This document shows, piece after piece, positions 6,464 through 37,571 of a DNA stretch of 64,000 bases. A program made the position numbers and the translations under genes. The stretch is from a virus. Each line of letters opens with the position of its first letter. Position 1 is the first letter of the stretch. The notes beneath the pieces were generated by a model, which saw only the letters and a program-made list of their open reading frames with translations, was not told the origin of the DNA and did not search any database. Where the stretch lies: IMG/VR virus record IMGVR_UViG_3300045988_143931, positions 64,001 through 128,000 of that record. One strand, written 5' to 3'.

Positions 6464-6736
6464 TTACAAAATTTCATTTTGCTTTTCTAATAAAATTAAT
6501 AATGCACTCATTGTCATTTTCTGTATGTATTCATCTTTATCCAATTCTTTTTCAGTTATTGGCTGATCTTCATCAATAAAATCATAATTTACATACAATG
6601 TAACTCCTGAATTATCCTTGCACCATACTGCAACAACTTTGTCACCACCAAATTCTACAATATCTTCTTTAAGCTCTTTGATTAATTCCGAACATTCATA
6701 ACTAATTCCCAAACCTTGTTCATTTATAAATGCCAT
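6464..6736 (-). CDS. hypothetical protein
   Basis: Track ORF; GGAGGG RBS. Confidence 0.6.
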   Translation of the reverse strand: MAFINEQGLGISYECSELIKELKEDIVEFGGDKVVAVWCKDNSGVTLYVNYDFIDEDQPITEKELDKDEYIQKMTMSALLILLEKQNEIL

Positions 6737-6739
6737 TAT

Positions 6740-7255
6740 TTATCCCTCCAAATTTTTTATAAATCTAAATCCGTTTGCCGTAGTTTTCTTTTTAGAACCA
6801 TCCTTACGATAAAACCAATTGCCTTTTATAATACCTTCTTCAATAACTTCTGTTACTACTGGATGTTTTCTAGTACCAGACCATTCTAAGAAAGCACATT
6901 CCCATCTTTCTTCTGAAGGCTTAGATTCCATTCTTTTCTCTTTTTTATAATCTAAAAGCAATTCCTCAATTTTATCATCTGTCAAATTTTCTATTCTATT
7001 AATATCAAGCGAATAGAATTCTGTTTTATTATAGTGATTACTTGTATGATGCCATAAAGAATATCTCAAGCAAACTTCTTTCAATACTTTTATAGGAAGT
7101 CTTCTTAACTTCTCAATTGAACATTTCAATTCAATTTCTGTATCTTTAATTGTATCAAAAATATTTGCCTTTGTCCACTTACTTAATGGTTTCTCACCAT
7201 CTTCATAAGCTGCAACTGCATTGTTGCTCATCGACCATCCATTATACCCCGCCAT
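6740..7255 (-). CDS. hypothetical protein
   Basis: Track ORF, 171 aa. Confidence 0.6.
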   Translation of the reverse strand: MAGYNGWSMSNNAVAAYEDGEKPLSKWTKANIFDTIKDTEIELKCSIEKLRRLPIKVLKEVCLRYSLWHHTSNHYNKTEFYSLDINRIENLTDDKIEELLLDYKKEKRMESKPSEERWECAFLEWSGTRKHPVVTEVIEEGIIKGNWFYRKDGSKKKTTANGFRFIKNLEG

Positions 7256-7291: not shown

Positions 7292-7486
7292 TTATTTCTC
7301 ATCCTCAATATCTTCTAAGCTGTCAATTCCTAACTCATCCATAATATCATCACAAAGACAACTTCCATCGCATTCAGCTCCATCATACATAACAGTCATC
7401 TCTTCAATATTTAAAACATAACGACTTTCTTTCTGTTGCTTAAATAATTTTAGTACCTGTCTTAATAAATATTCTTTCCTATCCAT
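7292..7486 (-). CDS. hypothetical acidic protein
   Basis: Track ORF; start moved to ATG at 7486 (AAAGGTGG 8 nt upstream). Confidence 0.55.
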   Translation of the reverse strand: MDRKEYLLRQVLKLFKQQKESRYVLNIEEMTVMYDGAECDGSCLCDDIMDELGIDSLEDIEDEK

Positions 7487-22492: not shown

Positions 22493-22708
22493 TTATAATT
22501 CTTCTAAGTCTGCAAGATTATGTCTGAATCTTGTTCGACTATTGGTTTTACTGTCTACAACAGTATATTTCCCTTTCTCTTCATTGATATAGAATCCATC
22601 TTTGTTTACTTTTGATGTTTTCCATTTATAGCCTTCGTTTTCACATTCTTTCCATGCCACTTTTTCGGCATTTACTGAATACTGCCTTTTAAGTTCTTCT
22701 TTGTTCAT
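22493..22708 (-). CDS. hypothetical protein, first gene of the leftward array
   Basis: Track ORF trimmed to MNKEELKRQ (AGGAGGG 8 nt upstream). Confidence 0.6.
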   Translation of the reverse strand: MNKEELKRQYSVNAEKVAWKECENEGYKWKTSKVNKDGFYINEEKGKYTVVDSKTNSRTRFRHNLADLEEL

Positions 22709-22760
22709 AGTATTAACCCTCCTATATAATTTATATTTTATTTTCGACATTAAATGTCAA

Positions 22761-22834
22761 TGTGCTTGTAGGAATCGAACCTACTGATAAGTATAATGTT
22801 GTTAGCATTATATTATTCACCACATATAAGCACA
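22761..22834 (-). tRNA. tRNA-like element (degenerate; anticodon loop CUAACAA, nominal AAC)
   Basis: On the minus strand: perfect 7-bp acceptor stem (TGTGCTT/AAGCACA), canonical T-arm GTAGG-TTCGATT-CCTAC and a 5-6 bp anticodon stem. The D-arm is weak, position 8 is A and the variable region is about 9-10 nt. Confidence 0.4.
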
Positions 22835-23863
22835 AATAAGATAAGTAGCCCTCACATCCTCTGTTATATATTCACTTATTTCCTATTAGGTAGACCTCAA
22901 ACATTAAATGGTATATTCACTTATTACTTATCATCAGGTGACTAACCCTTATGCAGTCAACAGTTTATTATTTTAATTCGCTCCAACTGTTACGAATACC
23001 TTACACTGTTTTATACAAACCGATTGCAAGACATACGGTTTTATCAGTGACATTATTCTCGAACTGATTACAGAATATACTATCAACCTAGTTACACTAG
23101 ACAGTAGGATTTATAGGCAGGGATTGTACTGCTCATACCTCATACACGAATGTAGATAGATACATTCAACATTAGTGTTACCACTAATTCTTGTGTATTG
23201 TTCCACTAGCAACTTTTCAAATAACCAAGCATAAGTTTTCATCGTTTTACCGAAACGCCAGTCGCTAACTATATACTGAGCTATCGAATCATTGTTAATT
23301 TTTATGATAGTGAATTGTGTCAATCACTCACTATATTTGTACCAAGATGCTATGTGATAGTGTTTACACACTATGTATTATGTACTTGCCACCAGCCACC
23401 ACTTTTCATGCGCTGTTCACCAAGTTTTCCCGAATATAGAGTTTATATTCGCTGACCTAGCCACTTGGGAGTGCTCCGTAACACCCTTGTCAGCCCTATA
23501 CGACATCTCCTCGTTTATGGTTCTCGCAAACCACACCCTTGACCGTTCAATCATATGTATTCTTGTAGTGTTGTGCTGATAGTTTAGAGCAGAACATCTA
23601 CTTGTCCACAAAACCTGAAGTCTATCGTCACCTACTTATTAACGCACACCTCCTAACTAGGTTGTATTTTGTGTAAGTGTATTGATGTCGTGTGTAGGTT
23701 AATCACACTAGAATACACATACAGTAACCTTTATGCATTGCGTCTTTAAATTTTGGGTGACTTTAATAGACCGTTTGGGAAGAACTGTCGTACCTCTACG
23801 GCTTATCACGGTTTTATTTGTATTGTGTTTAATGTTATGTATTTTTATTGACATATGGGTTGA
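22835..23863 (-). ncRNA. candidate large structured ncRNA (orientation inferred)
   Basis: About 1 kb with only three short RBS-less ORFs (64-70 aa) in a tightly packed genome, and visibly less AT-rich than its flanks. Hairpins include 23357-23374 (7 bp; loop reads GUAA on the minus strand), 23518-23533 (loop UGCGAG on the minus strand) and nested helices 23677-23683/23712-23718 around 23690-23694/23704-23708. Confidence 0.35.
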
Positions 23864-23911
23864 GTAAAAAAGAACCCTATCTTGACGAAAATGTAAGTCA
23901 AAAATAGGGTT
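23864..23911 (-). terminator. intrinsic terminator of the 24019..24447 gene
   Basis: Long hairpin (outer stem AACCCTAT/ATAGGGTT, 23873-23880/23904-23911) followed on the minus strand by CUUUUUU. Confidence 0.6.
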
Positions 23912-24018
23912 GATGATGGAGAACCCATCACAAAATGATGATGTAGATTTTGTGACCTACCCACTCAAAGAGTGGGTAACGCACTAGGCTTGACACGGTT
24001 TATACTCGCCTAGTCGAG

Positions 24019-24447
24019 TTATTTAGCCATACGGCTCTGCTGATTATCCATGAACTTTGTAGCATCTTCGGCAGACTTGAACTCGTAAATCTGCACATAC
24101 TTGTCATCCTTTGCAAGTGCGTCATAGACCTTATCACCCTTGCCAAGCTTAGTTGCACCAAAGTCTTCAGTCGCAGACATCTTGATGGCAAACCTAGCCT
24201 TGCTTGACAGAAATGCACCCTTGACTGTACGGACGAACTTGCCATCGCACTCAAGAGAGCCGACAATCCGTGTAGACTTCTTAGATGCTGTCTTAGGCTC
24301 TGACTTAGGTGTTGTGTCTTTAGGTGTCTCTGTCTTAGGCTGTTCAACTGCTCCAAGTCCTAAGAGTTTAGCGATTTTCTGTGCTTCTGTAGCGTTAATC
24401 TGATAAGCTACTCCATTAACGATAACTGCATTCTTTAATTCTTTCAT
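24019..24447 (-). CDS. hypothetical two-domain protein, compositional outlier
   Basis: Protein-like translation MKELKNAVIVNG...PKTETPKDTTPKSEPK linker...C-terminal domain. Markedly higher G+C than all neighbours. Start taken at the ATG at 24447 (GAAAGG upstream). Confidence 0.65.
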   Translation of the reverse strand: MKELKNAVIVNGVAYQINATEAQKIAKLLGLGAVEQPKTETPKDTTPKSEPKTASKKSTRIVGSLECDGKFVRTVKGAFLSSKARFAIKMSATEDFGATKLGKGDKVYDALAKDDKYVQIYEFKSAEDATKFMDNQQSRMAK

Positions 24448-24720
24448 AATTACCAACCTTTCTGTCTCATCTTAGAGACTTAAAAAAATATTTTTTGTTC
24501 ACTGAACTGCTCGTCAGCCGTTCAGCTTGGCTACACCTTATCACAAAAAAATTCTGCTTGTTTCGGTGCAAAACTTCCAAAAATGCTTATTTTTCGTGGT
24601 TTTGAGTATGGCGAGAATGGGGGGTGGCAAAAACGGATTAAACCCTTATGAAATGTAAAACCAGGTATAGCAGGTTTATTTACACACCAAGTCAAAAAAT
24701 TTTTTATTAAAAATAAATTA

Positions 24721-25440
24721 TCTTATTCTCAATCCATTAAATCCCCAATAAAATCAAGCAAAATCCCAATTTTCCCATCTCAAACTCCATATCGTACCCC
24801 ATATCGCTCAAACCTACTAACCAAGCCACTTTCACCCATCTTACAACCCAAAAATCAAACTTTCATTTCATTAAAAATTCACTCACAAATCCAAAATTAT
24901 CCTTATTTATAAGCACTTTTACCGATAACCATTTTTAATCCAGAATCATCATTATAATCAATTACATAAATCATAAATCTCTAATCAACAATAAGGGGGC
25001 TACATAAAAACCACATCAAAAAATCTAAAATTACCTATATACATCACAAAAACAGCCAAAAAAATCCAATACAAACCATCAAAAATCCTACTATAACAAT
25101 GCCAAAAACTCCCATCTCTCATCTAATCCCTCTATCATGCCCATATACAGTATTTTTATTTTACCCTACCAATAACACATAAAATCATTTTTACCTACCT
25201 AAATGCTCAAAATACAAGGTCAATTTTTTACATCACCCAAAATCACATTAACTATCTATATATATTCATGCACATTTACTATAAATAATATTATCAATTC
25301 TCACACTTATATAAAAATCAATTCTCATAGCTCAAATTTCAATTTTTACCCTCTACCCTAACAACTAGCCACCTGACATATAAAAATCCAAAATAGACTC
25401 AAAATCATACATTTTTCTCCTTATATTCCATGTAAAGAAT
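24721..25440. other. G-depleted (plus strand) non-coding tract
   Basis: Hand count gives about 26 G in 720 nt, and 24841-24900 has none. C is abundant. No ORF of 60 aa or more on either strand. The AAAATC motif recurs at least 11 times. Confidence 0.8.
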
Positions 25441-36429: not shown

Positions 36430-36559
36430 AATCAGCTTTTCTTAATATCCTGCCCTATAGGGGCATTACATAATATTAAAAGTTTATCTCATAAGCTAAC
36501 CTCTCTTTCTTATATCGGTGGTTACATTATTTTGATAATGGTGTAATCACTGATACTCT

Positions 36560-36631
36560 TCCCATATAGTTCAATGGTAGAGCAACGGACTGTTAATCCG
36601 TAAGTTACAGGTTCGAATCCTGTTGTGGGAG
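36560..36631 (+). tRNA. tRNA-Asn (GTT)
   Basis: Cloverleaf by hand: acceptor TCCCATA/TGTGGGA, anticodon loop CTGTTAA, T-arm ACAGG-TTCGAAT-CCTGT. Confidence 0.85.
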
Positions 36632-37459
36632 TTATCCTATTTTTATAGGACTGGTCGGTTTCGGATCAGAGAATATTAAATTCTAAAATAAGCATGGTGA
36701 CATGTATAAAGTGGTTCTTATCGCATTATAAGGCTGCGACTGTAGTGATACAGTTTGACGGAAAACACATAGGATTTATACCTAACCTAAAATCAGAGGG
36801 CTACTGCTAATGATATGGTTCGGTAGGTGTCATGAAAAAGGCACTGTTAATTAACACAGAAATGTGGGGATAATCCGTGTATGGTTGGTGGAAATACCGC
36901 AAGTATAACTGCTAGTCATATTTTGGTAATATCTCTTAAGTTGAAAAACAGGGATAGAATCAAAAAGCAAGGAGATCGCAATCCAAGCAGGATGGTGATG
37001 ATTGGGCGGTACTCAAAAGGTACTGATGGTCAAATATACACCTCATCGTCCAAAATTTAATTACATACTTTTAAATTGGTCAAATAATAGAAAAGATAGA
37101 TTATTTAAAGAAAATAACAAGCAAAAGTGTGTATGACCGCAAAGAGAAAAACAACTTATTGTCCTGTAATATGGACACATATAACACTCGCAAGGTGTTA
37201 TGTGAGAAAGTACAAGTATATGCAACTCTAATAGGCTGCAACCTATGAATCTCGCAAGGAAGAATGTGTAAAAAGAAAATCTATAATGCTTTGTGGTAAG
37301 AGTTTGCCAGTTATGTCAAAACTGGTGTTGTTGCTACCTACTGTCTAATCGACAGTGTGATAAATTGTGTCCAACCGCAATAGATGGTAGTGTATTGAGT
37401 CAATATCTCAGCTCATATTAAGTAAGAGTCTCATACTTCGGTATGGGATTTTTTATTTT
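36632..37459 (+). ncRNA. candidate large structured ncRNA (GOLLD/ROOL-class or novel)
   Basis: No ORF of 60 aa or more in six frames over about 0.8 kb, lying between two tRNAs. GNRA-capped hairpins at 36693-36704, 36739-36754 and 37181-37201. CTCGCAAGG occurs twice and ACCGCAA three times. The region ends in a UUCG hairpin plus U-run. Confidence 0.45.
37430..37459 (+). terminator. intrinsic terminator (UUCG-capped)
   Basis: 7-bp stem 37430-37436/37441-37447, loop TTCG, then ATTTTTTATTTT. Confidence 0.65.
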
Positions 37460-37533
37460 GGGAATTAGTTCAGTTTGGTTAGAACGCCTGATTTGGGTTC
37501 AGGAGGTCGTGGGTTCAAATCCTACATTTCCAA
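37459..37533 (+). tRNA. tRNA-Pro (TGG)
   Basis: Acceptor TGGGAAT/ATTTCCA, anticodon stem CCTGA/TCAGG with loop TTTGGGT, T-arm GTGGG-TTCAAAT-CCTAC. Confidence 0.8.
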
Positions 37534-37571
37534 CTACTATTCTACTTTGTAGGAAATAAATCAAGAAAGAA

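Follow-up and report, generated by a model that had tools for sequence, protein, structure and literature searches.

Few bacterial or phage non-coding RNAs longer than 500 nucleotides (nt) possess a conserved, intricate fold, among them the ribosomal RNAs, RNase P RNA, group II introns, OLE, GOLLD, ROOL and raiA. GOLLD members often exceed 800 nt; GOLLD assembles as a 14-mer RNA-only cage, and cages of both GOLLD and ROOL have been shown recently. Folds resembling transfer RNA (tRNA) can also set the end of another RNA, e.g. the MALAT1 3' end is made when RNase P cuts a tRNA-like structure, mascRNA. To our knowledge, no biological role has been established for the Pistol class of ribozymes. 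The subject here is a gene-poor block, positions 22835-23863, in a 64,000-nt stretch of viral DNA (the window; positions 64,001 to 128,000 of IMG/VR record IMGVR_UViG_3300045988_143931), which encodes a large structured RNA on the minus strand between a Pistol ribozyme and a tRNA-like element. The common theme of GOLLD and ROOL is an RNA that is phage-encoded, large and near tRNAs and that has a variable internal region (PMC12286853, PMC5737381). Theta ribozymes adjoin phage tRNAs in gut phages (PMC10879173).

By its size, ornateness, phage origin, tRNA linkage and variable interior, we read this RNA as a new family of the GOLLD/ROOL kind. It is likely to be a giant non-coding RNA, of a family not in Rfam, that is excised from a longer leftward transcript and acts in trans. 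As in GOLLD, the RNA is phage-encoded and very large, tRNA-type elements adjoin it as potential processing sites, and many helices and conserved junctions and loops are combined with a poorly conserved internal region. Its length and location are also those of GOLLD, i.e. a phage genome, a tRNA-like neighbour, a core of 872 nt and a predicted excised RNA of ~1121 nt. With ROOL (RF03087) it shares the character of a large ornate phage or prophage RNA, often near tRNA islands, with a non-conserved internal linker. Theta ribozymes and mascRNA are similar in that a ribozyme or tRNA-like fold at the boundary of a functional RNA defines its end; the locus differs from them in that the ribozyme is Pistol, the cargo is a giant non-coding RNA, and Pistol and a tRNA-like element share one position in two sister clades, termed A (that of the window) and B.

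The block is a conserved structured RNA of the minus strand. Its structure was curated from RNAalifold output on alignment A2, comprised of 11 non-redundant clade A representatives of <96% identity (the most distant at 60-69%), and was then tested by pair counting. In the 186 pairs, arranged in 25 helices, 95.3% of cells are standard pairs, as against 30-42% when the partners are slid. Changes on both sides are found in 75 pairs, compared with 31.4 +/- 3.5 in shuffles (0/500) and 6-17 in the slid controls. Many invariant G-U pairs would become A-C mismatches if read on the plus strand, thus the RNA strand is the minus strand. Together with the minimum free energy z-scores (-1.78 on the minus strand vs -0.26 on the plus strand), this bears out the leftward transcription that had been proposed by the first-pass annotation, made from the letters of the window and a list of its open reading frames (ORFs). 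The core, its parts and the spacer that follows it, from the 5' to the 3' side of the RNA, are listed here.

22938-23809, minus strand: core of the giant RNA, ~872 nt, closed by the 7-base-pair (bp) helix P1 (23809-23803 / 22945-22938)
23492-23802, minus strand: domain 1, closed by stacked P2 and P3
23802-23798 / 23497-23493 and 23793-23787 / 23504-23498, minus strand: the domain 1 closing helices P2 (with a conserved G.G) and P3, respectively
23303-23491, minus strand: domain 2, helices 11-16, the best-conserved part, with invariant ACAAGG, AGGUCA, loop AGAAAGUGGUG and hairpin tip GUGAUUGACAC
23203-23302, minus strand: variable central region (alignments A1 and A2)
23104-23202, minus strand: domain 3a, made up of helices 17-20; it has a hairpin with a GUAA loop, a junction in which GUUG is conserved, and GAGGU...ACAAUCCC...AAAUCCUA
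22946-23103, minus strand: domain 3b, made up of helices 21-25, one hairpin of which is 22992-22985 / 22965-22958
22835-22937, minus strand: spacer with the hairpin 22929-22917 / 22849-22835 (RNAalifold helix)

Helices at 23357-23374 (loop GUAA), 23677-23683/23712-23718, 23690-23694/23704-23708 and 23147-23168, picked out by eye in the first-pass annotation, reappear as the covarying helices 15, 6, 7 and 19, respectively. A fifth, at 23518-23533, did not hold up as part of the conserved fold; it belongs to an insert in domain 1 (23508-23540) that is exclusive to the lineage of the window. An extension of P1 beyond 7 bp (23809-23792 / 22956-22937), given by RNAalifold on the first alignment, has four mismatches and was rejected. 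The P2/P3 stack was preferred to it because P2 shows a G-C to A-U double change and there are no mismatches. The variable central region is short in the window and ~200 nt longer in five relatives (L006, L008, L013, L028 and L045), and no helix within 23203-23302 passed the filter. The 19-nt loop of the domain 3b hairpin, GGAGCGAAUUAAAAUAAUA, is nearly invariant in clade A, with one U/C position. The spacer between core and tRNA-like element is absent in L046 and shrunk to a short hairpin in L028 and L031, i.e. it is dispensable. A candidate long-range pairing of 5 bp, AUGCA/UGCAU (23738-23734 / 22955-22951), with two compensatory pairs, would join domain 1 to the strand beside P1; as this sequence is palindromic, an intermolecular contact is also possible.

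On the 5' side of the core, the minus strand carries a leader, a self-cleaving ribozyme and a gene.

24019-24456, minus strand: ORF145, 145 codons, upstream of and co-oriented with the RNA, likely start ATG at 24447
23951-24019, minus strand: Pistol self-cleaving ribozyme (Rfam RF02679, 60 bits vs a gathering threshold of 34.5)
23928-23955, minus strand: leader hairpin a (UCACAAAA / UUUUGUGA; RNAalifold helix, A2 columns 68-76/94-100)
23856-23927, minus strand: leader hairpin b (UGGGUU / AACCCA); the L008 group shows a double change here, G-C to A-U
23810-23855, minus strand: A-rich single-stranded linker with conserved AAAUAAAACC at its end (alignments A1 and A2)

The Pistol match is aligned over the full model length (1-68) with one non-standard pair, and the P1 hairpin, pseudoknot, P2, P3 and G-U dinucleotide are all present. 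Scores of 60-70 bits were obtained in every clade A locus scanned with Rfam, and compensatory changes occur in Pistol P1 and P3 among these relatives. The scissile bond is predicted to be G23956|U23955, within a conserved G-U dinucleotide located between P3 and the P2 3' strand, on the basis of the Rfam consensus alignment and published Pistol biochemistry (PMC4604425). Leader hairpin a shares a CACA strand with Pistol P2 and is predicted to form at the new 5' end after cleavage. In single-sequence folds it forms in 9 of 11 clade A members (the two others being L013 and L045), and it is re-coded in L031 and L046. A Pistol segment, 23997-23978 (GUGUCAAGCCUAGUGCG), resembles the 5' strand of the core P1/P2 region, 23809-23792 (GUGAUAAGCCGUAGAGG). 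When Pistol is included, RNAalifold pairs this segment with the 3' strand 22958-22937, with no covariation; this could be an alternative, unproven pairing that precedes cleavage.

A minus-strand terminator at 23864-23911 had been taken as one boundary of the block. The hairpin does exist, yet it is not a bounding terminator: with its U-tract it is an insert of the window lineage within the loop of the conserved leader hairpin b. As a conserved intrinsic terminator it was rejected, since the terminator scan does not call it, four lineages (L028, L031, L043 and L046) lack the hairpin, and no lineage but that of the window has the U-tract. The upstream portion of the linker is likewise a window-lineage insertion. 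Neither is the block the head of a leftward operon, as had been suggested, because ORF145 and Pistol precede it on the same strand. ORF145 ends on a UAA (24021-24019) whose last base is the first base of the ribozyme.

On the 3' side lies the tRNA-like element, which had been placed by eye at 22761-22834 and is recovered within one position by ARAGORN.

22760-22834, minus strand: tRNA-like element, ARAGORN tRNA-Val(aac)

Relaxed ARAGORN is too noisy to stand alone. The element has a 7-bp acceptor stem and a canonical T-arm (GUAGG-UUCGAUU-CCUAC), lacks a D-stem, and has one long arm tipped by a 7-nt loop, CUAACAA (anticodon AAC), in which U33 and a purine at 37 are present. In its RNAalifold structure 226 of 230 cells are paired, with 5 compensatory pairs. 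Compared with a canonical tRNA, the acceptor, T-arm and anticodon loop are as expected, whereas the D-stem cloverleaf is absent and the RF00005 tRNA model (29 bits) gives no match at gathering for 22760-22834; the best match in the Rfam tRNA clan is tRNA-Sec, at 18.9 bits and E 1.3. The CUAACAA loop is kept in all five clade B loci, where the stems covary, and reads CUAAUAA in L043. The element is presumed to be an RNase P substrate setting the 3' end of the giant RNA. Both the GUUG junction of domain 3a (~23170) and the loop CUAACAA (22804-22798) are kept in both clades. As the anticodon AAC reads GUU, a codon-anticodon-like docking with the GUUG junction in cis is conceivable and could easily be chance; the CUAAUAA of L043 would still yield a G.U pair with the junction, and the match is only 4 nt.

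Homologs were gathered from IMG/VR using the upstream protein and patterns of invariant blocks, and from metagenomes using one 23-mer. The RNA is carried by ~30 contigs, those from metagenomes all being from human gut, and every full-length contig shows Pistol, then ~1 kb without genes, then the tRNA-like element. Two exact invariant-block patterns in IMG/VR returned the same clade only; looser patterns added L028 and L030 and then the distant L047. BLAST against 50,697 GenBank phage records gave no real match for the RNA (near-whole or 3' part) or for ORF145, and the terminase is also unmatched there. No host prophage emerged when one genome per species was scanned: a first scan was empty, and the three hits of a second (L048-L050) were matched neither by nhmmer nor by model R1. 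One contig, L045, is a mosaic (1607-2999). No other clade A member diverges as much in Pistol and the 5' half, whereas the 3' half closely resembles that of the L010 group, and another gene takes the place of ORF145 upstream. This suggests recombination within the RNA locus.

The second clade extends conservation past close relatives. A motif kept in the most divergent member, CTTGG..TGATTGACACAA, retrieved a contig of higher G+C (L047/L051), whose upstream protein is an ORF145 homolog at 26% identity, and four further ORF145-type relatives each precede a gene-free gap of 1.2-1.7 kb. The clade A profile matches all five clade B gaps (nhmmer E 4e-18 to 7e-29), and covariance model R1 (helices 11-15 of domain 2) matches all five members over its full length (E 3e-10 to 3e-9). 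In the clade B sequence alignment, P2 is paired in 20/20 cells, P3 in 30/30 and helix 16 in 50/50, with new compensatory pairs and closing-helix sequences GGACGU/AGGUCU and GACAGUC/GGCUGUC. Over both clades, domain 2 is 93.9% paired, with double changes in 29 of 46 pairs vs 16.9 +/- 2.2; this alignment is model-fitted and leans towards the model, and the margin is large. Model R2 (domain 3a) matches L055 (E 9e-5) and L051 (E 0.008). In the Rfam scan of clade B there is no Pistol. The 5' side instead has a terminator-like hairpin and then, at the position of Pistol, a small tRNA-like element that lacks a D-arm, has the acceptor CGGCUAU/GUAGCCG and shows covariation in its T-arm. Two further features of clade B were observed in L051: three leader hairpins and one internal hairpin (~6480-6560 and 6960-6980) with near-identical loops of the CCCUUUAGG type, as found in clade B RNAs, and a T-loop-like hairpin at 7330-7350 (AGGUGG-UUCGAUU-CCACCU) that replaces the GUAA-loop hairpin of clade A domain 3a.

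The first-pass annotation had also likened the setting of the block to that of 36632-37459 in the same window. The comparison of settings is apt, as that second block is occupied by a GOLLD RNA whose two ends abut tRNA-Asn (36559-36632) and tRNA-Pro (37459-37534) exactly.

36632-37459, plus strand: GOLLD RNA (36990-37414 matches RF02032 with 100.3 bits, E 7.7e-27; the curated threshold is 150 bits)

A scan at gathering threshold misses this GOLLD by default. For the RNA studied here, we infer that both ends are cleaved, that the product is stable and that it acts in trans. Excision as a free RNA is suggested because each flank of the RNA is an element of a type known to be cut, because Pistol and a tRNA-like element interchange at the 5' side in sister clades, because the sequence separating these modules from the core can be dispensed with, and because the GOLLD of the same genome has its own two tRNA boundaries. 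A longer minus-strand transcript would begin upstream of ORF145. Pistol would cut G23956|U23955, the new 5' end would refold as a hairpin in which one ribozyme strand is re-used, and RNase P, cutting at the 5' boundary of the tRNA-like element (22834), would free an RNA of ~1.1 kb in the window and 0.94-1.25 kb in relatives (942-1253 nt). The product would consist of at least three domains closed by P1 and, as a stable and ornate RNA of the GOLLD and ROOL kind, could act in trans in the infected cell. With less assurance, we lean towards a fuller proposal, i.e. a previously undescribed giant RNA class (~0.95-1.25 kb) that is trans-acting, with a fold unrelated to GOLLD and ROOL and interchangeable end-processing modules, in which Pistol would have its first concrete role. 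The RNA would then operate as a machine or assembly in its own right, perhaps jointly with the Val(AAC)-type tRNA-like element attached to it.

Several observations weigh against this account. No promoter was identified, the sigma-70 scan giving 7 sites vs 13.3 expected from shuffles. The hairpin and U-tract at 23864-23911, between Pistol and the core, could be an attenuator and may halt part of the read-through. Within clade B, domain 3b was not found (model R3) and neither was P1, so that this 3' architecture is specific to clade A and not universal. The terminator-like hairpin before the clade B RNA may imply an internal promoter there, making co-transcription with ORF145 uncertain. Finally, the module appears to be accessory, because a close relative, the 176-kb human-faeces phage MT835469.1 (L059), with 80.7% identity in a polymerase-like protein described below, appears to lack it: neither ORF145 nor the RNA was found there by tblastn and blastn, in a linear record cut near the equivalent region.

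Of the other explanations, the one that fares best, and which we nonetheless regard as unlikely, would make the block a leader that acts in cis on the leftward early genes (by antitermination, attenuation or sensing, for example) and functions only as part of the mRNA. The RNA does immediately precede a series of small genes in the same orientation, the first of which is given here.

22493-22708, minus strand: first downstream gene (71 aa; ribosome-binding site GGAGG)

The tRNA-like processing signal stands between the RNA and these genes, however, and it is the RNA that is retained while the downstream genes vary: by tblastn over the 13 loci tabulated, the 71-aa gene has a homolog in L038 only. 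The terminator-like hairpin of the window leader would also suit such a leader, yet it is lineage-specific, ~25 covarying helices over ~900 nt are far beyond known cis-regulators, and no Rfam cis-regulatory family matches.

Slightly more doubtful still is an extremely divergent member of GOLLD or ROOL, which would give the phage two paralogous giant RNAs. The genomic theme is the same, comprising a phage, tRNA-type neighbours, large size and a variable interior, and the sub-threshold score of the window GOLLD indicates that divergent members exist. Against this, no GOLLD or ROOL match was obtained at E<=10 in 22600-24200 or in other members of either clade, nor does any Rfam family match the block in this 1.6-kb search, even at E<=10. 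A search of this type with the GOLLD model, which represents the universally conserved 3' region of that family, does recover the window GOLLD, at E 7.7e-27. In the reverse direction, the family profile (nhmmer) and models R1-R3 find nothing in 36632-37459, and blastn is negative as well, so that the kinship in sequence or structure once suspected between the two blocks is not borne out. The short resemblance noted to 36883-36897 is due to chance, the best blastn E being 0.35 and the profile and models blank there. The conserved sequence blocks are unlike the GOLLD consensus and are not shared with it, and the 3' domain motifs of GOLLD, AAGCAAAAGU and CUCGCAAGG, were not seen on reading this RNA, in which the 5' two-thirds are most conserved across clades and the 3'-most domain is variable. 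The Pistol at the 5' flank in one clade is a further difference from GOLLD. ROOL has a mean length of 581 nt, making this RNA nearly twice as long, and its known distribution, limited to two clades of large human-gut phages, is also unlike that of ROOL. Rfam 15 and the searched literature describe no Pistol-linked or third giant phage RNA.

A self-splicing intron, retroelement RNA or other mobile RNA element would likewise be large and multi-domain with a closing helix, and could sit beside a ribozyme. It is nevertheless very improbable, there being no group I or group II match at E<=10, no split host gene, no ORF for a reverse transcriptase or homing endonuclease within or next to the RNA, and a fixed position relative to ORF145 in two clades.

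The block is indeed poor in ORFs, as first reported. Its ORFs are all short, none exceeding 70 amino acids (aa) in the ORF list, and include the three that had been named.

23111-23323, minus strand: short ORF of 70 aa
23373-23579, plus strand: short ORF of 68 aa
23417-23611, minus strand: short ORF of 64 aa

Each of the six frames has 14-37 stops, of all three types, and no single stop reassignment opens more than 129 codons in the block. Variable columns are spread evenly over codon positions (159/275, 160/274 and 151/272), without 3-base periodicity, and a protein-coding, recoded or pseudogene reading was rejected. A decayed or stop-reassigned gene (gut phages do reassign stop codons; PMC10879173), or an element acting at the level of DNA, e.g. 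an origin or a packaging site, in what looks like an intergenic gap near a divergent control region, is thus scarcely credible, given also the compensatory changes and strand-specific G-U pairs that indicate RNA and the ribozyme and tRNA-like element that flank the block. As to base composition, the elevated G+C that had been remarked on is real at 23300-23750 (0.41-0.42, vs 0.30-0.36 in the surroundings, about 0.33), but 22850-23300 is at 0.35, i.e. the enrichment is confined to the 5' half of the RNA.

The source genome is that of a phage, with terminase, ParB-like and DUF3825 genes and a protein resembling RNA-dependent RNA polymerase (RdRP) in the window, and IMG/VR contigs of 150-183 kb suggest large phage genomes.

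33115-35982, plus strand: RdRP-like protein, 955 aa, with weak similarity to eukaryotic-type RdRP (PF05183, phrog_8308)

This protein is probably a phage-encoded RNA polymerase and may explain why no sigma-70 promoter is evident. Distant relatives of it occur in Enterocloster, Thomasclavelia and Bacillus phages; because of these relatives and the strong GGAGG ribosome-binding sites on phage genes, a gut Bacillota host is likely. In clade B (L055, L056 and L058; positions 1 to ~1900, minus strand), the RdRP-like gene is divergently adjacent to the module of ORF145 and RNA.

ORF145 has no Pfam or PHROG match, and its AlphaFold model is of low confidence (predicted local distance difference test score, pLDDT, 51.6). 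A homolog precedes the RNA in clades A and B but not in L045, and the family may be considered a possible protein partner of the RNA. The divergent region between ORF145 and the DUF3825 gene contains ~750 nt (24650-25400) that are nearly free of G on the plus strand (GC skew about -0.7; C makes up 4% of the minus strand) and hold no ORF of at least 100 aa. Poverty in C upstream of ORF145 recurs in clade A (3-8% C in the poorest 500 nt) and is weaker in clade B (12-14% C).

The ORF145 family comprises 394 clusters at 90% identity in public data and the phage group is therefore taken to be common in the human gut, as is the linked RNA element in human-gut metagenomes. If the present reading is true, the RNA would be a third large phage RNA, with a different fold and in the same genome as a GOLLD, and it would follow that large gut phages devote resources to several RNAs of this type. 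Structural and functional studies would gain a new target. The occurrence of Pistol where the sister clade has a tRNA-like element gives this ribozyme a plausible and testable role, in which it would set the 5' terminus of a giant RNA and detach that RNA from the mRNA upstream.

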